A stretch of DNA of 6,244 nt from a virus, in the IMG/VR virus record IMGVR_UViG_3300045988_028382, positions 1-6,244 of that record; one strand, 5' to 3'. The notes below the pieces were generated by a model that made no database searches, was not told the origin of the DNA, and saw nothing but the letters and a program-made list of their open reading frames with translations. The position numbers were made by a program, and so were the translations under genes. How positions within the stretch are numbered: position 1 is the stretch's first letter; every line of letters starts with the position of its first letter. Positions 1 through 6,244 of the stretch are shown here, piece by piece.

Positions 1-55
1 ACCAGCAGAGGTAAGGACAGACCATCCATCTATAGGAGCACACCAAGACTGGTAA
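1..55. repeat. Terminal direct repeat, copy 1 (circular-assembly overlap).
   Basis: accagcagaggtaaggacagaccatccatctataggagcacaccaagactggtaa is identical at 1-55 and 6190-6244. Confidence 0.97.
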
Positions 56-1566
56 GCCATACCAGAACGGAATCCAGCGTGAACAGTATCAATATTAGAT
101 TTCCATTGCCAGTACCGGAGATTATAACCAAGAGGACCAGAAACAGTACGAGACGGGTTGTTCTGGAGACTCAGAGCAGGGACAGCCTGCATGCCTAACT
201 GGTCGAAAGCAGGTTGTGGGAAATCAGAAATAGCCGTAACAGTCAATTGAGGATTCTGACCCGTCAAGTTCCAATCAACCAGAGGAACAGCATGATATAC
301 GCACATAATCACCTGATGTTCAGCACCACAATCATAAGTCAGCGTATGACCAGACTGAGAACCTACACCTTTACCAGCGATTACAGCTTGAGAGTTATCA
401 GATTCTAAGTTGGTATTCAAGACTTCATTAATATTGATTACATTTGACCAACCTCCAATATAATGACAATGATTACCCATATATTCAGGAGCTTTGATAC
501 CAAACTGGGCGGCCATTTGGTCTGAATAGTCTTTACTGGAGAATTGTATTACCTCTTTCCACCGCTGTAAGTATTCTGTCGCACGGATTGAAAGAGCGGA
601 GAGGTCGGCATTCAAAACAACATTACGGCCAACAGTAGAAGAGGCACTGTTAGTAGTAGCGACGTTAACATTGCCAGGAGTATTAATCAACGCAGCATTA
701 GGTTGAGAACCACTACCACCAGCAATAACAGAACGGGAGTTCCATGTAGAATCAATAGCCGAAAGCACAGCAACACTACCATACTGACTATTCGGGAGCA
801 TACCCATAAAATAATCTTTCGGATAGTTAGCATACCGAAGCTGGAGCATTTCAGAGGCAAGATTTAACTGCGATTTACCGTCCCAATAGTCAACATTATA
901 AGAATAAGCCAGGTGCTTTTCCCATTGAGAATTTGAAAAAGCGTCATAATAAATTTTTTGATAGGTCAACAACGGAAGAAGATTTACAACCTGACTCTTA
1001 GAGTAAACCAAAGGATTAGAAGCATCACCGACAGAATCTAGACCTAAATAAGCCTTAGTAATAGCAGCCTTGGCAGTGTTTGAAGACGCAAGAAATGAAC
1101 CATATTCAAGCATATCCAATATCTTAGAAGCGCCATAAACATAAGGCAAGCCAGCATCATCAAAAACGTCTTTGCCGTTAATCACCTGGAGACTCAACGA
1201 TATCAAGTTCAATGTTGTGTTCGGTACAGAAGTCAACATTTCAGTATTAGCAGTATTACTAGCGGCAGACGTCATATAATCCGTCATCTGAGTAAACGCC
1301 TGAGGAAGAGCACGAGAAATCAAGCGTAACGGCACAGCGTAAAAGTCATAATACTCTTTAATACGAGTGTACGCAGCAGTGTTTACCGGAACAGTACGGG
1401 TAAACCAATCAGAGGAAATACGGTATTTATTACCGGGGATAGCAATCTGCCAATAGACGGGCAGAATTTCACCAACTTTCGCCGTAAACAACTTTTTACT
1501 AGACAGGTCAAAGGAAGAGCGATGAACGGCAACTTTCGCTCGGTCTAGCGGATTAAAATCACTCAT
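1..1566 (-). CDS. VP1: Major capsid protein VP1 (F-like jelly-roll capsid), N-terminal 522 codons. The ORF continues across the circular junction into 6189..6022.
   Basis: I checked every triplet by hand. The minus-strand frame with codons at 3k+1..3k+3 has no stop from 1566 down to 1. The ATG is at 1564-1566 (plus 'cat') and an in-frame stop lies just upstream at 1573-1575. The translation starts MSDFNPLDRAKVAVHRSSFDLSSKKLFTAKVGEILPVYWQIAIPGNKYRISSDWFTRTVPVNTAAYTRIKEYYDFYAVPLRL. The FDLS...FTAKVGEILP...PG...TRT.PVNT.AY.RI.EYYDF..VP pattern is what I recall for Microviridae VP1/F capsid N-termini. It is absent from the ORF track only because it runs off the window edge. Confidence 0.93.
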   Translation of the reverse strand, partial: MSDFNPLDRAKVAVHRSSFDLSSKKLFTAKVGEILPVYWQIAIPGNKYRISSDWFTRTVPVNTAAYTRIKEYYDFYAVPLRLISRALPQAFTQMTDYMTSAASNTANTEMLTSVPNTTLNLISLSLQVINGKDVFDDAGLPYVYGASKILDMLEYGSFLASSNTAKAAITKAYLGLDSVGDASNPLVYSKSQVVNLLPLLTYQKIYYDAFSNSQWEKHLAYSYNVDYWDGKSQLNLASEMLQLRYANYPKDYFMGMLPNSQYGSVAVLSAIDSTWNSRSVIAGGSGSQPNAALINTPGNVNVATTNSASSTVGRNVVLNADLSALSIRATEYLQRWKEVIQFSSKDYSDQMAAQFGIKAPEYMGNHCHYIGGWSNVININEVLNTNLESDNSQAVIAGKGVGSQSGHTLTYDCGAEHQVIMCVYHAVPLVDWNLTGQNPQLTVTAISDFPQPAFDQLGMQAVPALSLQNNPSRTVSGPLGYNLRYWQWKSNIDTVHAGFRSGMAYQSWCAPIDGWSVLTSAG

Positions 1567-1574
1567 AAATAATT

Positions 1575-1588
1575 AATTTAATTAAATT
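1575..1588. repeat. AT-only 14-nt perfect palindrome in the VP4-VP1 junction.
   Basis: AATTTAATTAAATT is self-complementary. It overlaps the VP4 stop (1587-1589) and sits 9 nt upstream of the VP1 ATG. It may simply be an AT-rich translation-initiation leader. Confidence 0.4.
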
Positions 1589-3431
1589 AGACCATACGGT
1601 TGAATATATTATTAGCGTCACTTAGCTTCTTATGTTTAATCATATCACGGCAGAACTTCGATGCACGGTTATCCAGACACCTCTGTAAGTCGTCGCACAA
1701 ATCGTTGTAATTTGCAGGTTGCGAGGCTTTAAAGGATAATCCGACCAGACGAGAAAGAGCTGGGGAAAATAATAATTTTCGGGGGTCATCAAAATGTAAG
1801 ATGGTGGGTTTGATTCCTGCCATTCTGTCTCGAATAGTGTACGTGGAAAATGTTCCATCTTCTTCCTCCTTAACGATTGACCTCTCACATCCTATGGCTG
1901 GTAAGTAAAAATATCGCAATAAAGGGAATTCACATGCTTCTTGTATTCGCAACGAATCACACATTCGTACATAGTCCGCTTTTTTCTCATACTCTATGCC
2001 TATTTTGATGATAAAATTAATACGATTGGCATAAGAATCAAGATTACCACCGATGGGAGGCAGATGCCAATTCCTAAGGAACTTACTGACATAAAGGAAT
2101 AGCCGATATAACTTATTAATATAAGATTCAACATCGACATCAGAAGAACTGTTACAGAACCTAGTAAGACACCGAGCAGAATGTAAAACAATTTCGTCCT
2201 CATTAGTTAAATGATGATTTAAGATAATATATTGATAATAAGCACGAACAATAGAAAGGATAGAATCGGAATTATAATCTATAATACCAAATCTTGCGAT
2301 TCTTTTCGGCGCATCTGCAACAGCACGAATAATTCTAGCAATCGCAACAGCATCGTCATAGCGAGCACTTGAGAATCGGGGGAGTAAGGTACGGATATAC
2401 GACATGGGGGGAGTTGATTTAACACTAATCCCGTTGAAGTTATAGATTCGTCCATTAATGACAGAATCGATTTTTTGCTCAATCGCATGATAGACGTCTT
2501 CGCTTTCATCAAGAACCTCGCCTTTTTCAAAAAATCCAATAGACGCTCTTTGTCGGGGTTTAAATGAGCCGCATGCTCGATATAATGAGGGAGCAGAGAT
2601 AAGGCTGTTAACGTAACTCGCAACGTATGATGAAGCTCCACCACGGGCAACCTGGAAATCTGAACGACCGAATTTCCAACTCTTAGCATGACACTGTCGT
2701 AATACCTCCGAGACTTTTTTCGAGTTTGAGAATAATAAGATATGATAATGCGGGCGGAAATGGACTGGTCCGTATTCACCCACAGCGTAGAAGTGTAACG
2801 TTTCATAAGAACCTAAAATTTGATATAAATGTTTACGTAAGCGTTTAATATAGTTCTGAACATCAACATAATTCAGAAAGGGTATAAGGTTATCAACACC
2901 ATATTTTTCAGCAACGGGATATACTGAGTTGTCAACGGCCTGCGTTTTACGGATAAAACTACGAATAGCATCCATACTAAGAAACCAATTAGCCCTAACA
3001 GGAACATGCTCCTTGATTTTACGGTCAAACGGCACCGTGCCTTGAACTTGCGTGAAGAATATATGACGTAAAAGGGAAGAATCCTCAGGTTGATACTCAG
3101 AAACAGGGATATAAGAGTGGCGTTCATAACCAAAAACTTTATCTCCTGAAATACTTAAGGCGTCTTCATACTCACTATACAGAACATCACATTTCATCAA
3201 AGGAACATGCTCGTTATCATAAGTAAGCGTCACAAAATAAGAATACTTGAAAGCACTTCCAGCGGTCTTCACACGCATGGACGCCTTTTGAGCACGCTTA
3301 TAAATACAGTAATCGCATTGACCGCAATCCACGGCAATACGTTGACCTGTGTAACGATTAGTTATAAAAGAACGATGTTGGCAATAATCAGCAGCCTTAA
3401 GCAAATCAGGAGAATATGCCTTAATTATCAT
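1587..3431 (-). CDS. VP4: Replication initiation protein VP4 (HUH rolling-circle endonuclease, phiX174 gpA analogue), 614 aa.
   Basis: The ATG is at 3429-3431. Motifs read from the translation: N-terminal Cys cluster DCGQCDYC (aa 35-42) and motif 1 FVTLTYD (aa 66-72). DVQNYIKRLRK (aa 190-200) is followed by the HUH motif 2 HFRPHYHILLF (aa 224-234). I verified the His codons at 2748-2750 and 2742-2744. Motif 3 carries paired Tyr, SSYVASYVNS (aa 267-276). There is no Walker A motif. Confidence 0.93.
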   Translation of the reverse strand: MIIKAYSPDLLKAADYCQHRSFITNRYTGQRIAVDCGQCDYCIYKRAQKASMRVKTAGSAFKYSYFVTLTYDNEHVPLMKCDVLYSEYEDALSISGDKVFGYERHSYIPVSEYQPEDSSLLRHIFFTQVQGTVPFDRKIKEHVPVRANWFLSMDAIRSFIRKTQAVDNSVYPVAEKYGVDNLIPFLNYVDVQNYIKRLRKHLYQILGSYETLHFYAVGEYGPVHFRPHYHILLFSNSKKVSEVLRQCHAKSWKFGRSDFQVARGGASSYVASYVNSLISAPSLYRACGSFKPRQRASIGFFEKGEVLDESEDVYHAIEQKIDSVINGRIYNFNGISVKSTPPMSYIRTLLPRFSSARYDDAVAIARIIRAVADAPKRIARFGIIDYNSDSILSIVRAYYQYIILNHHLTNEDEIVLHSARCLTRFCNSSSDVDVESYINKLYRLFLYVSKFLRNWHLPPIGGNLDSYANRINFIIKIGIEYEKKADYVRMCDSLRIQEACEFPLLRYFYLPAIGCERSIVKEEEDGTFSTYTIRDRMAGIKPTILHFDDPRKLLFSPALSRLVGLSFKASQPANYNDLCDDLQRCLDNRASKFCRDMIKHKKLSDANNIFNRMV

Positions 3432-3436
3432 AAGTA

Positions 3437-3742
3437 TTAACGTTTATCTATTACCTGTCGACGATTACGTGAACAGAACGAAACATGAATAAATGTCGGA
3501 TATATAATAAGCTGGTCAAATGGCGAAACATTATCAGAAAAAAAATGAATCTCTTCAAGCAACTTATTAAACGTAGTAGAACCATAAGGCTTAATATCAA
3601 CAGCTTCACCTACAAGATGCTGAGAATTCGGAGCACCATTGCAAGCTTTATTCTGCTCAGGAGTACGCCTGGCACTAGTTACAGAAAAATGAACATTAGA
3701 ATACAACAAGTACTCAAGAAAATGCATAAGAGTATAATTCAT
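3437..3742 (-). CDS. Peptidase M15-like zinc metallopeptidase (D-Ala-D-Ala carboxypeptidase / cell-wall peptidase fold), 101 aa. Putative endolysin.
   Basis: The ATG is at 3740-3742 and forms an ATGA overlap with the stop of the upstream small ORF. The translation contains SARRTPEQN (aa 23-31), then SQHLVGEAVDI (His42, Asp49; His codon verified at 3617-3619) and FIHVS (His86). This matches the (S/T)xxR...N...SxHxxGxAxD...H zinc-ligand H/D/H signature of the peptidase M15 (M15A/M15_3) family. Confidence 0.8.
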   Translation of the reverse strand: MNYTLMHFLEYLLYSNVHFSVTSARRTPEQNKACNGAPNSQHLVGEAVDIKPYGSTTFNKLLEEIHFFSDNVSPFDQLIIYPTFIHVSFCSRNRRQVIDKR

Positions 3743-3963
3743 AGTCCAATAGCATTAAGTACATAACCAAGAGCGGCAGAAATAGCGCCAATTACAATTT
3801 TCCAAACATTACTACTTTTCATCAGATTGAGATTTAAGTTCAACGAAATTATTTTCTTCTTTAATTGAATCCACAATAACAATAAGACCCAACGGAGAAA
3901 CTCGCTCAGAATAATTTCCAAGACCATCGAGAGAATTGACAATATAAGGCGGCATAACATCAC
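3739..3963 (-). CDS. Small hydrophobic protein with uncertain start. It could be 74 aa from GTG 3963, 73 aa from ATG 3960, or a 27-aa C-terminal version from ATG 3820-3822. Candidate membrane or holin-like peptide.
   Basis: The stop TGA at 3739-3741 overlaps the peptidase ATG at 3740-3742. The C-terminal 27 aa, MKSSNVWKIVIGAISAALGYVLNAIGL, form one predicted transmembrane helix. Their ATG overlaps the last codons of the 64-aa ORF (GATGAAAAGTAG). The N-terminal part overlaps ORF 3812..4006 in another frame and could be a compositional artefact. Confidence 0.35.
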   Translation of the reverse strand: MMLCRLILSILSMVLEIILSEFLRWVLLLLWIQLKKKIISLNLNLNLMKSSNVWKIVIGAISAALGYVLNAIGL

Positions 3964-4006
3964 GACCAGTTTGTTTTTCTTTTAAGGAAATAATGAATTT
4001 CTGCAT
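3812..4006 (-). CDS. Hypothetical protein, 64 aa, first ORF after the long non-coding region.
   Basis: The ATG is at 4004-4006. The composition looks like a mixed soluble protein (MQKFIISLKEKQTGRDVMPPYIVNSLDGLGNYSERVSPLGLIVIVDSIKEENNFVELKSQSDEK). It shares strand and polarity with all other genes. I recognised no motif. Confidence 0.5.
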   Translation of the reverse strand: MQKFIISLKEKQTGRDVMPPYIVNSLDGLGNYSERVSPLGLIVIVDSIKEENNFVELKSQSDEK

Positions 4007-4126
4007 AATTGTAAGATTTTAAATGTTAATAATTTAATGAGTTGGTTTCTACAAAGGCAAAGGAAAGAATTATTTTTGAATAAACAAAATATTTCGGAGT
4101 TTTTTTTATTCTACGGTCAGAGTGTG

Positions 4127-4194
4127 AGTTGTGCGTTTATAGACAAGAAGGGCCGAATTTGAGATGATAACTCAAATTTCCTTCGGACACAACT
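4127..4194. other. Nested stem-loop domain. An outer helix 4127-4133/4188-4194 encloses 4147-4151/4180-4184 and 4156-4163/4171-4178.
   Basis: Plus-strand pairs are AGTTGTG/CACAACT (7 bp), GAAGG/CCTTC (5 bp) and AATTTGAG/CTCAAATT (8 bp, 7-nt loop ATGATAA at 4164-4170). All pairs are Watson-Crick, so the domain can form on either strand. Confidence 0.6.
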
Positions 4195-4244
4195 AGGGGC
4201 TTCGCTTGAATAACAAAGTGGATGTATACAGGGTGTATAGGCAC

Positions 4245-4266
4245 GGCAGGTCAGATAGAACCTGCC
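4245..4266. other. GC-rich hairpin.
   Basis: GGCAGG (4245-4250) pairs with CCTGCC (4261-4266), with a 10-nt loop TCAGATAGAA. Flanking GCAC (4241-4244) and GTGC (4280-4283) could extend the stem. Confidence 0.55.
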
Positions 4267-4283
4267 TTTGCGCACCTACGTGC

Positions 4284-4308
4284 TAAAATACCGAAGCGGA
4301 AACGCTTC
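4284..4308 (-). terminator. Candidate intrinsic terminator in minus (mRNA) sense. The same hairpin carries a GNRA tetraloop in plus sense.
   Basis: GAAGCG (4293-4298) pairs with CGCTTC (4303-4308). The loop is GAAA on the plus strand and UUUC in minus sense. In minus sense the stem is followed by GG and then UAUUUU (plus 4285-4290). It lies about 110 nt downstream of the VP2 stop. The stem is only 6 bp and the U-tract is short. Confidence 0.25.
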
Positions 4309-4344
4309 TCTATGGAAGTCGCTCCGCTCCGTTTTTCGATCAGG

Positions 4345-4361
4345 GCCTAGGCGGCCGGCCG
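4345..4361. repeat. Two abutting GC-rich palindromes.
   Basis: GCCTAGGC (4345-4352) and CGGCCGGCCG (4352-4361) are each perfectly self-complementary. This is the most GC-dense spot in the window. Confidence 0.8.
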
Positions 4362-4367
4362 GTGTAT

Positions 4368-4386
4368 ATCACTCAAACGCCGTGAT
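4368..4386. other. Short hairpin.
   Basis: ATCAC (4368-4372) pairs with GTGAT (4382-4386), with a 9-nt loop TCAAACGCC. An alternative pairing is CGGTG (4360-4364) with CGCCG (4378-4382). Confidence 0.4.
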
Positions 4387-4415
4387 GGGCTCTTAGTCCT
4401 AAAGTATGTTAACAG

Positions 4416-5570
4416 CTAATAACCGATACCATTAGAACCGTTATAAATAGTAGTGTTACGAGGACCGTAATCATTACGGAAAATCTGAGCACCGGGGCGC
4501 ATAGCTCCAATTACATTACCAGCACCTTGAAAAATACGAGATGTATAATCAATAGCATTACGAATACCGTAAGAATCAAAGTCTTTTTTAGCATTACCGG
4601 CAGACCACTTATAATAATCACGTAAGGCTTTATCCTTAGAATACTGCATATTTTTACGATTATTAACATTCTTATAATCCCAGAGAGAATCATAATACTG
4701 TGTATAATAAGCCATATTCGTAGCAGAAATTAGAGCATCAGCAGTGCCAGAAGCAATTTTGTTAGAAATTTTCTGACCTTGTGCCTGAGCAGCTAGCAGA
4801 ACAGCACGCTGGATTTCAGTTTGAACCTGTTTTTCAGTCAAAGCACCTTGTTGAACAAGGTTATAAAGATACTGGGCTTTTGTAAACAAATCCGCTTGTT
4901 GTTTAGCATCCATATACTTATTCAGTATAGCTTGAGCGTCAGACTGCAAATAAACTTGAGTAGTTTGAGCGGCAGAAAGCTTACCAGCAGTAACAGCATT
5001 CTCCAATTGCTGGCGCTCCATAGATTGGTCTAATTCGGCAGAGATACGACCCGTTTCTTTATTCCAGTAACCAGACTGGCCGACACCAATATTTTTATAA
5101 TTAGTATCACCTAAAATCCTATTTACTAAATAAGGAGTAAGAGTATCTATCTGTCTAGATTCAGAAAGAGCCTTTTTGGCTTGAGCAAACGAAGACAAAG
5201 CCGTGTCAACAGAAGAAAAATCAAAGTGAGGGGCTTGCATGGAAGGAGTAGAAACAGAACCAGCCTGAGCTCCAGTAGGGACAGAGGCACCAGTACCCGA
5301 AGCGTTTTGAGTAAACGGGTTTAAACCGCGAGAAATCATAGCCTCAGGAGAATTATACTCATTCTGTTTATTCCACATTTTCTCCTGCCAATCACGAGTT
5401 TTTTGAGCTTCCTGTCGCTGAAAGGAACGATTCAGTTGGGCTTGACGCTCATTAGCGTCATTAGTGTCAGCAGTAGCAAAAGCATTACCAATAGCGCTAA
5501 ACAAACTACCAATAAAATGATGCTCATTCCTAGGAGAGAGCATGCTCTCTCCAATCTCTAGAAACCTCAT
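4416..5570 (-). CDS. VP2: Minor capsid / DNA pilot protein VP2 (phiX174 gpH analogue), 384 aa.
   Basis: The ATG at 5568-5570 forms an ATGA overlap with the upstream ORF stop at 5567-5569. There is an N-terminal small-residue hydrophobic segment, IGSLFSAIGNAF. This is followed by WQEKMWNKQNEYNSPEAMISRGLNP (aa 61-85). That matches the W..(E/R)MWN.QN.YN(S/T)P..Q(M)..R...AGLNP block I recall as the hallmark of Microviridae VP2. The rest is Q/A-rich and probably helical. An alternative start is Met10. Confidence 0.88.
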   Translation of the reverse strand: MRFLEIGESMLSPRNEHHFIGSLFSAIGNAFATADTNDANERQAQLNRSFQRQEAQKTRDWQEKMWNKQNEYNSPEAMISRGLNPFTQNASGTGASVPTGAQAGSVSTPSMQAPHFDFSSVDTALSSFAQAKKALSESRQIDTLTPYLVNRILGDTNYKNIGVGQSGYWNKETGRISAELDQSMERQQLENAVTAGKLSAAQTTQVYLQSDAQAILNKYMDAKQQADLFTKAQYLYNLVQQGALTEKQVQTEIQRAVLLAAQAQGQKISNKIASGTADALISATNMAYYTQYYDSLWDYKNVNNRKNMQYSKDKALRDYYKWSAGNAKKDFDSYGIRNAIDYTSRIFQGAGNVIGAMRPGAQIFRNDYGPRNTTIYNGSNGIGY

Positions 5571-6021: not shown

Positions 6022-6244
6022 TTAATAAGGTAAACCATTTCTATCCAAATTCTGAACAGCATAAACCTGGAAATTAACATTACACAACAACTGGTCATAA
6101 GCCACGGAACAGTTCTGACCTGAAACTTGAGGCTCAAAAATAGAGTTCAATTGCTGAGGACGAACTTTCATAGATTTATACGACCAAGAACCAGCAGAGG
6201 TAAGGACAGACCATCCATCTATAGGAGCACACCAAGACTGGTAA
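6022..6244 (-). CDS. VP1: Major capsid protein VP1, C-terminal part. 6022-6189 is unique sequence and 6190-6244 duplicates 1-55.
   Basis: Triplets from 6022 upward contain no minus-strand stop. The TAA stop is at 6022-6024 (plus 'tta'). Joining 1566..1 to 6189..6022 gives 1566+168 = 1734 nt, which is 577 aa plus a stop, exactly in frame. The C-terminus reads ...GSWSYKSMKVRPQQLNSIFEPQVSGQNCSVAYDQLLCNVNFQVYAVQNLDRNGLPY*. Confidence 0.9.
   Translation of the reverse strand, partial: YQSWCAPIDGWSVLTSAGSWSYKSMKVRPQQLNSIFEPQVSGQNCSVAYDQLLCNVNFQVYAVQNLDRNGLPY
6190..6244. repeat. Terminal direct repeat, copy 2 (circular-assembly overlap).
   Basis: Exact 55-nt match to 1-55. Reading-frame continuity of VP1 across the join indicates a circular molecule of 6189 nt. 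Confidence 0.97.

Follow-up and report, generated by a model that had tools for sequence, protein, structure and literature searches.

The virus record IMGVR_UViG_3300045988_028382 of IMG/VR holds a stretch of DNA of 6244 bases, referred to here as the window, in which a hairpin-rich element occupies much of a non-coding region at 4415..4007. The structure, phylogenetic range and possible role of this element are the subject of this report. The window represents a circular microvirus genome of 6189 nt plus a 55 nt assembly overlap, which is seen as an exact terminal direct repeat (1–55 is identical to 6190–6244). The minus strand of the window carries every gene. Transcription order starts with the major capsid protein, VP1 (1566..1, continuing 6189..6022), followed by a scaffold-like protein of 147/150 amino acids and the pilot protein of 384 amino acids (5570..4416), which precedes the non-coding region. 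After it come two small open reading frames of 64 amino acids (4006..3812) and 73 amino acids (3960..3739); within 3739–4006 these overlap each other by ∼150 nt in different frames, and one of the two may be spurious. A Peptidase_M15_3 protein of 101 amino acids (3437–3742) is found just upstream of Rep. It is likely a cell-wall hydrolase, and GenBank relatives label it 'peptidase'. Rep itself has 614 amino acids (1587–3431), with an HUH motif PHYHILLF, a tyrosine motif SYVASYVN and a Pfam PF23343 match that is confined to residues 189–275. Its N-terminal cysteine cluster (C17, C36, C39, C42) is invariant in four clades, and its C-terminal ∼330 amino acids have no annotation. No primase domain is recognised in the phage proteins. 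The gene order, together with related proviruses in Bacteroides, Phocaeicola, Paraprevotella and Muribaculaceae, places the phage among the Alpavirinae-like phages of Bacteroidales.

Genes elsewhere in this genome are tightly packed, with ATGA overlaps at 5567–5570 and 3739–3742 and gaps of 5 nt at 3432–3436 and 20 nt at 1567–1586. An initial annotation, made from the letters of the window alone, had drawn attention to 4007–4415 as a stretch free of open reading frames where all other junctions are overlaps or gaps of no more than 20 nt. The coordinates confirm this, and no open reading frame of 60 or more amino acids is present in 4007–4415. The enrichment in GC that it described is also real: the GC fraction is 0.492 in 4111–4415 compared with 0.399 for the genome, its hand counts of G+C per 60 nt (27, 26, 31 and 37) are exact, and the left part of the region, 4007–4110, is AT-rich with a GC fraction of 0.202. 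The possibility that the region is a degraded coding remnant, which had been named as an outcome that would overturn the proposal of a structured element, is not borne out. The median length of the longest stop-free stretch among the relatives' copies is 63 amino acids in an element of ∼112 codons, and alignment gaps are mostly not multiples of three. Because the stop-free stretches are short and the gaps mostly do not preserve frame, the element is non-coding and is not a decayed gene. Several GenBank 'hypothetical protein' coding sequences cross the element or its flanks (L005:1616–1942, L007:1888–2040, L001:1323–1619); these are probably false gene calls.

A blastn search of 50 697 phage records with 3990–4430 (word size 11) finds 34 GenBank microviruses at 71–86% identity, and nothing outside these 34 records, which belong to the same clade as the window genome (the window clade). 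Their sources are lemur faeces and saliva, human vaginal fluid and dog faeces. One conserved 15 nt block recovers more than 100 IMG/VR contigs, and nhmmer yields 112 distinct full-length copies of the element.

In characterised Microviridae, the gene-sense strand is the packaged strand and the sole single-stranded form; it is termed the virion strand here and corresponds to the minus strand of the window. When the single sequence is folded as DNA, the virion strand has a z-score of −2.65 and the plus strand one of −2.09, only mildly beyond shuffles. It is therefore comparison with relatives that carries the case for structure. When covarying column pairs are ranked by a G-test with average product correction, Watson–Crick pairs of local hairpins rank at the top; 4249/4262, for example, is AT in 62 copies and GC in 50. 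Over the full element, 96.9% of the cells of 46 named pairs are paired in 29 diverse copies, and 19 of the 46 pairs vary on both sides. None of 500 shuffles reaches this combination of pairing and two-sided change, and slid controls are 31–43% paired. The search for compensatory changes in homologues that the initial annotation had proposed thus comes out in favour of the fold. As judged by this comparison, the conserved hairpin fold is real, and ten local hairpins are supported.

Five of the six helices that had been listed from the window sequence are kept in relatives with compensatory changes, i.e. 4127–4133/4188–4194, 4156–4163/4171–4178, 4245–4250/4261–4266, 4293–4298/4303–4308 and 4368–4372/4382–4386. 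The sixth, 4147–4151/4180–4184, is not, as 4180 and 4181 pair instead with 4186 and 4185; two of its pairs are Watson–Crick in just 23 and 30 of the 112 sequences. Comparison adds helices 4272–4275/4280–4283 and 4344–4347/4353–4356 as well as a 2 bp hairpin, 4180–81/4185–86. Two further hairpins, 4199–4205 and 4321–4327, have stems that are invariant in the window clade, so that pair counts are uninformative, and these are assigned on the basis of a GNA loop rule described below. Other candidate structures were rejected. An outer helix, 4106–4111/4208–4213, is not kept among relatives; a pseudoknot between the junction strand and the loop of hairpin P2 (TTAT/ATAA), checked by eye, is unconserved in outgroups; and junction strands of 1, 0 and 21 nt do not fit a hammerhead-like reading.

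The element is made up of two modules, a widespread domain 1 and a domain 2 that is specific to the window clade; all their parts are assigned to the minus strand. Domain 1, the core module, spans 4118..4210 and consists of a three-way junction of P1, P2 and P3 with a flanking mini-hairpin. P1 (4127–4133/4188–4194) closes the junction, and three of its seven pairs covary within the clade (GC/CG, TA/AT/CG and GC/AT). The single-stranded junction strand J has 21 nt (4134..4154), with a conserved core that reads GACAAGA on the plus strand (4142–4148) and YCTYG-YC on the virion strand. The P2 hairpin (4155..4179) has a stem, 4156–4163/4171–4178, and a loop, 4164–4170, which is TTATCAT in virion sense. 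Its pairs 4158/4176, 4159/4175 and 4160/4174 are among the strongest covarying columns and are Watson–Crick only. P3 (4180..4186; virion CCGAAGG) is a DNA mini-hairpin with a 2 bp stem and a GNA triloop, which is GAA, GGA or GTA in virion sense in 111 of 112 copies; no pair covaries more strongly than 4180/4186 (GC 62, CG 42, AT 8). The second DNA mini-hairpin, mini2 (4199..4205; virion GCGAAGC), sits just 5′ of the junction on the virion strand. In the window clade it varies only at the middle loop base (GAA 105, GGA 7), and in other clades its loop is GAAA and its stem covaries (GGC/GCC, GAC/GTC, GAT/ATC). A run of eight A residues (4100..4107, T8 on the plus strand) adjoins domain 1 on its 3′ side on the virion strand. 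An A run of 6–11 is present in ∼101 of 112 copies and in two of three outgroups inspected (L132 and L133, not L134).

Domain 1 has a wide phylogenetic range and occurs throughout the Alpavirinae-like microviruses. A covariance model of it, R1, scores 106 bits at 4118..4210 and matches 75 of 79 outgroup contigs, five further contigs, three more distant GenBank genomes and five Bacteroidales proviruses. There is no match in the partial genome L283, in a 5.6 kb genome or in a 4.7 kb genome of gokushovirus size. The outgroup Reps that accompany domain 1 are merely 27–37% identical to the window Rep. Outgroups nevertheless have the same gene order, a non-coding region of 390–610 nt at the same place and a recognisable domain 1, whose position and orientation relative to Rep are constant in every clade. 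Outgroup helix sequences are wholly different yet complementary, and conservation is seen in the junction strand, the P2 loop and both small hairpins. Across clades 94–97% of cells are paired and 17 of 21 pairs vary on both sides; none of 500 shuffles attains the pairing of the cross-clade alignment A6 (94%). The RRCRAGR core of J is retained in every A6 clade while the flanking helices change, and the GAT(T)AA motif of the P2 loop is kept from clade to clade. The J core is a candidate protein-recognition site or nick site.

Domain 2 is a hairpin cassette of ∼170 nt (about 4233..4400). It contains P4 (4245–4250/4261–4266), P5 (4272–4275/4280–4283), P6 (4293–4298/4303–4308), P7 (4344–4347/4353–4356) and P8 (4368–4372/4382–4386), each with compensatory changes, as well as a mini-hairpin, mini3 (4321–4327; virion GCGGAGC), which varies at the N base alone (G 98, A 14). 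In virion sense the loop of P5 is GGA in 28 copies, and G..A loops are found in 112 of 112 copies at P7 and in 107 of 112 at P8. P6 is replaced by a 7 nt virion-sense GCGNAGC (N = A, T or C) in L004, L018, L020, L046, L089 and L125. Domain 2 is not detectable in outgroup clades, and several genomes retain 4118–4210 alone, with domain 2 deleted or replaced. The variable linker between the domains (4211..4232) is a hot spot of insertion and replacement, where inserts of 20–170 nt or replacement of the whole module are seen in L015, L097, L047, L050, L082, L052, L084, L115 and L027. The linker insert of L015 (3600–3790) and L097 is ∼170 nt long, with a hairpin and T6 on the plus strand, and the linker of L082 has a 23 nt unit in three copies.

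The strand of action had been left unresolved in the initial annotation, but loop asymmetry points to the gene-sense strand as the one that folds. The G..A loop rule holds on the virion strand only. There the loops read C-GNA-G in 111 of 112 copies at P3 and 112 of 112 at mini2, with variation in the middle base alone. In the L133 clade the loops are GCAA, GAAA or GTAA, plus GGCGAAAGCC. The motif N-C-GNA-G-N′ occurs three times on the virion strand genome-wide, and all three occurrences (4180, 4199 and 4321) are within the element. Counted over 91 complete genomes, its density in the element is 9.1 per kb on the virion strand and 0.26 per kb on the plus strand, and elsewhere in the genome it is ∼0.6 per kb. 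A C–G closing pair, G and A at the loop ends as a sheared pair, one or more free middle bases and a 2–3 bp stem are the features of this type of mini-hairpin, and they are found at 4180–4186, 4199–4205 and 4321–4327; in virion sense, variation is limited to the N base and the outer pair. The tetraloop of the GNRA type that had been described as present only in plus sense does exist in that sense (the P6 loop, 4299–4302), but P6, with its plus-sense GAA or GAAA, is the exception among the loops.

The types of base pair bear on the nature of the folded molecule. Of ∼4800 cells in the supported helices of the window clade, 14 are G·T and 15 are A·C on the plus strand, and the outgroup pair cells are 1420 Watson–Crick, 10 GT and 7 AC; the share of G·T in supported helices is below 1% on either strand. 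In the test of 29 copies, every shuffle has a higher count of further pair types, and pairs that switch between A–T and G–C do so essentially without wobble intermediates. In structural RNAs, several per cent G·U is usual; DNA hairpins tolerate G·T less well. We infer that the folded molecule is DNA rather than RNA. The d(GCGNAGC) mini-hairpin of Hirao and colleagues, with two G–C pairs, melts at 70–76 °C and is bound poorly by single-stranded DNA-binding protein (SSB), and its RNA counterpart r(GCGAAAGC) melts at 39 °C (PMC13037366). By analogy with these published sequences, the mini-hairpins of the element would share the extraordinary thermal stability and the resistance to SSB or nuclease. 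A covarying 2 bp stem such as that of P3 makes sense as DNA, and hardly as RNA.

At the level of transcription, the small-ORF/Rep operon has a Bacteroidota-type promoter on the minus strand (4058..4088), with a −33 TTTG at 4088–4085 and a −7 TTCCTTTG at 4065–4058. This promoter, TTTG-N19-TAnnTTTG, follows domain 1 immediately downstream in the gene-strand direction and bounds the structured element. A gene-strand TTTG-N17-23-T(A)nnTTTG is found in 103 of 108 genomes, 70 of which have a perfect TAnnTTTG, and on the plus strand a promoter of this type is found in 0–2 of the 108. This promoter points to a Bacteroidota host. As the promoter is downstream of domain 1, the element is not the leader of the Rep operon; it is positioned between the stop of the pilot gene and this promoter, outside the early transcription unit.

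The initial annotation had considered a structured non-coding RNA or 3′ untranslated region (UTR) element expressed from either strand, and this is disfavoured by the lack of an Rfam match and of a plus-strand Bacteroidota promoter, by G·U below 1% and by the 2 bp stems. It had recognised no known RNA family, and none emerges here: cmscan of 3900–4550 against Rfam, on both strands with E up to 10, finds only chance snoRNA matches (E = 4.2 and 5.8), and a tRNA/tmRNA scan finds none. It is improbable that the element acts as a structured RNA of mRNA sense, such as the 3′-UTR of the late transcript or an inter-operon element that serves as stabiliser, processing site or protein-binding element. 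The GNRA-like and G..A loop rules do fall on the mRNA-sense strand, a three-way junction whose junction strand is conserved is a typical feature of functional RNAs, and there is no strong terminator between the pilot gene and the element in the window genome. However, G·U makes up just 0.3–0.5% of paired cells, stems of 2 bp under a GNA triloop are weak as RNA (see the melting of r(GCGAAAGC) above), Rfam has no matching family and the element lies upstream of the next promoter and not in a leader. In addition, the P6 hairpin plus GGUAUUUUAG is unconserved as a terminator; P6 plus GGTATTTTAG was considered as a late terminator and rejected, since neither the stem nor the T-tract is conserved.

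An RNA of the opposite, plus sense, antisense to the genes, would combine the GNRA hairpin with long-range helices rich in G·U, and its existence is very improbable. RNAalifold, run with 11 sequences, proposes helices 4195–4201/4388–4394 and 4320–4328/4357–4364 with many G·U pairs, and GAAA is present at 4299–4302. These long-range helices, however, show one-sided changes only, clash with the invariant mini2 and mini3 and are impossible in genomes without domain 2. Moreover, the plus strand is missing a Bacteroidota promoter, plus-strand loops read U..C, which fits no known motif, and P6 is the sole G..A loop in plus sense, while a subclade swaps P6 for a virion-sense mini-hairpin.

From what can be observed directly, i.e. 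the fold, the strand on which the loop rules hold, the modular build, the phylogenetic range and the location outside the early transcription unit, the element can be read tentatively as a replication-origin region of the single-stranded virion DNA, most likely a complementary-strand priming signal, and not as an RNA. A complementary-strand origin on single-stranded DNA (ssDNA) was the first of the options listed in the initial annotation, and it is the one favoured here in view of the Watson–Crick-only covariation, the virion-sense G..A loops and GCGNAGC mini-hairpins, and the precedents at priming sites. In the complementary-strand origins of G4, St-1 and α3, mini-hairpins of the GCGNAGC type are found at the primase site, RSF1010 ssiA carries the mini-hairpin CCGAAGG and the ssDNA promoters of the N4 virion RNA polymerase carry GCGGAGC (PMC13037366). 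P3 is identical in sequence to the ssiA mini-hairpin and mini3 to that of the N4 promoter. Priming is proposed because such mini-hairpins are documented at sites where priming or transcription starts on ssDNA, and the role would thus be one by analogy. Conserved DNA hairpins upstream of Rep in other microviruses have also been proposed as possible negative-strand origins (PMC9865509).

A possible sequence of events is as follows. After injection, host SSB would coat the circular virion strand. The hairpins would remain folded on the coated strand, three of them being of the GCGNAGC type, which is very heat-stable and binds SSB poorly. The three-way junction of domain 1, with its 21 nt junction strand and mini2, would present a fixed shape and sequence. 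Priming machinery of Bacteroidales, perhaps primase, a PriA-type primosome or RNA polymerase, would then recognise domain 1 and start the complementary strand. Domain 2, as an exchangeable cassette of accessory hairpins, may assist or tune priming.

Several observations weigh against this proposal. GNRA-like and G..A loops occur in RNA too, and the low G·T partly reflects high sequence conservation, with few independent substitution events. No convincing terminator precedes the element in the window genome, and read-through from the late genes may transcribe the region. The element is without sequence similarity to the G4, St-1 and α3 origins or to the φX174 primosome site. Domain 1 is conserved far deeper than is usual for (−) origins and tracks the Rep lineage, which would suit a (+) origin recognised by Rep, and the CTYG core of the junction strand is similar to CTTG, the core of the nick site in φX174 and pC194.

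These last points introduce the main rival reading, in which domain 1 is the viral-strand (+) origin and domain 2 an exchangeable complementary-strand origin. A Rep similar to φX174 gpA would nick the junction strand near virion TCTTG|TC, and the junction would present the nick site both in supercoiled replicative-form DNA and in the displaced strand at termination. We regard this as rather unlikely, with the following points in its favour. Rep has the HUH motif PHYHILLF and the Pfam PF23343 match, and its SYVASYVN is close to the φX174 motif, YVAKYVNK. Among the unpaired motifs, the junction core YCTYG is the best conserved when all clades are compared, and it resembles CTTG|ATA, the nick core of φX174 and pC194. 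A universal domain 1 beside a replaceable domain 2 mirrors the double- and single-strand origins (dso/sso) of rolling-circle plasmids, domain 1 is as deeply conserved as Rep itself, and no other φX-like origin is found in the genome; a search for 17 nt of the φX174 origin sequence with up to three mismatches gives no match in it. On the other hand, known microvirus (+) origins need no hairpins, and the documented natural contexts of GCGNAGC are starts of ssDNA priming or transcription and not nick sites. The base after G in the junction core is T or C, not A, and the likeness is just 4 nt. Helix sequences drift freely inside a single Rep clade, which means that they are not read by Rep. CTTGATA occurs a single time in the genome (1201–1207) and is not conserved in relatives; the junction strand has CTYG only. 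That occurrence belongs to AACTTGATAT (1198–1207, minus strand), which lies inside VP1 and is identical over 10 nt to the φX174 origin core, nick dinucleotide included. Even close relatives do not conserve it, and it is probably a chance match.

The priming signal proposed for the virion strand can be compared with origins of other ssDNA replicons. It would work in the manner of G4-type and ssi-type single-strand initiation signals and is related in sequence to none of them. Like the primase-dependent complementary-strand origins (oric) of G4, St-1 and α3, the element lies in an intergenic region of a microvirus and has several stable hairpins on virion ssDNA, which is presumed to be folded here. 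As in G4-type origins, it is intergenic and its fold is on the packaged strand, that strand being assigned from knowledge of the family. Both have a GCGNNAGC or GCGNAGC-type mini-hairpin, which in the G4 group is at the priming site and is SSB-resistant (PMC13037366). The G4-type origins differ in that they consist of three tandem stem-loops and not of a three-way junction with mini-hairpins, and there is no sequence similarity. Their hosts also differ from the Bacteroidales host of this phage, where priming is proposed by analogy. The ssiA and ssiB signals of RSF1010, used by the RepB′ primase, are short ssDNA signals with an identical CCGAAGG cap and a flanking single-stranded recognition sequence. 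RSF1010 encodes its own primase, whereas none is recognised in this phage, and ssiA has 40 nt and one hairpin. The PriA/n′ site of φX174, in the F–G intergenic region, is likewise an intergenic ssDNA signal containing a hairpin and serving stage I replication of a microvirus. This primosome site is a single imperfect hairpin of ∼55 nt, and the element shows no sequence similarity to it. The branched DNA shape of domain 1 could mimic a PriA substrate.

The plasmid origins ssoA, ssoT, ssoU and ssoW and the M13 intergenic region resemble the element in being non-coding, 150–500 nt long, orientation-dependent and heavily hairpinned, and in lying near a Rep gene or (+) origin. They are also modular, and can be exchanged between replicons, as can domain 2. 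The CS-6 sequence (TAGCGT/A), which marks a terminal loop of ssoA, is, however, missing from the virion strand of the element and from the virion strand genome-wide, and no promoter-like stem for Bacteroidota RNA polymerase is found in the element. A further parallel is with the hairpins of reekeekee- and roodoodoo-microviruses, which are conserved intergenic DNA hairpins upstream of Rep with compensatory changes and were suggested as possible negative-strand origins (PMC9865509). Those are one or two simple hairpins of 13–64 nt in tiny microviruses of marine and wastewater origin, whereas the element of the window has a three-way junction of ∼93 nt with mini-hairpins and a cassette of ∼170 nt, and belongs to a gut-associated lineage.

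Virion-strand ssDNA could also fold for another purpose, for instance as a packaging or condensation signal, as the site of an ssDNA-binding protein of phage or host or as a folded partner in Xer recombination as in CTXφ, although this is quite improbable. The same evidence for a virion-strand fold would apply, and in temperate relatives dif-like attachment (att) repeats share the non-coding region with domain 1 at a distance of 9–400 nt. These are the imperfect dif-like direct repeats that flank the proviruses L266, L269, L271 and L272; second dif-like sites are reminiscent of CTXφ (PMC3091885). The repeats of the L271 provirus are at 7125–7153 and 13580–13608, and this provirus adjoins four near-identical 82 nt units (6360–6748) that resemble tRNA genes. 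The att repeats fall outside domain 1, however, and the window clade keeps the element while having no provirus in 185 579 species genomes. No hairpin signal is known to be needed for packaging in microviruses. The earlier suggestion of an attP-like site is accordingly unsupported for domain 1, and a dif-like attP identity was rejected, as the flanking repeats are not inside the structured module. A captured host fragment, also suggested at that stage, finds no support: the strict domain 1 pattern has no match in the 185 579 genomes, one for each species, and the element co-occurs only with the phage lineage. A search of IMG/VR with the Rep of a P. plebeius provirus found nothing.

Priming and nicking may also be combined. 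Domain 1 could be a new class of ssDNA origin, a three-way junction with SSB-resistant mini-hairpins that serves both to load the host priming machinery and as the nick and termination site of Rep, but this is unlikely. Such a domain 1 with a dual role would be the circular-genome analogue of the T-shaped terminal hairpins of parvoviruses.

The idea of negative-strand-origin hairpins in microviruses is not new (PMC9865509). No report of non-coding RNAs or structured regions in Microviridae or Alpavirinae, including the domain 1 module, was found in the searchable literature. The element also carries a caution, in that strong covariation in an ssDNA virus need not imply RNA. It provides a natural case of GCGNAGC mini-hairpins under purifying selection outside enterobacterial systems. 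Domain 1 can serve as a marker in the annotation of Alpavirinae-like genomes, where GenBank has spurious coding sequences. Alpavirinae-like microviruses have been described in association with the microbiota of the human gut and mouth (PMC3091885), and the conserved DNA module offers a concrete handle on the initiation of replication in this major group of gut and oral phages.

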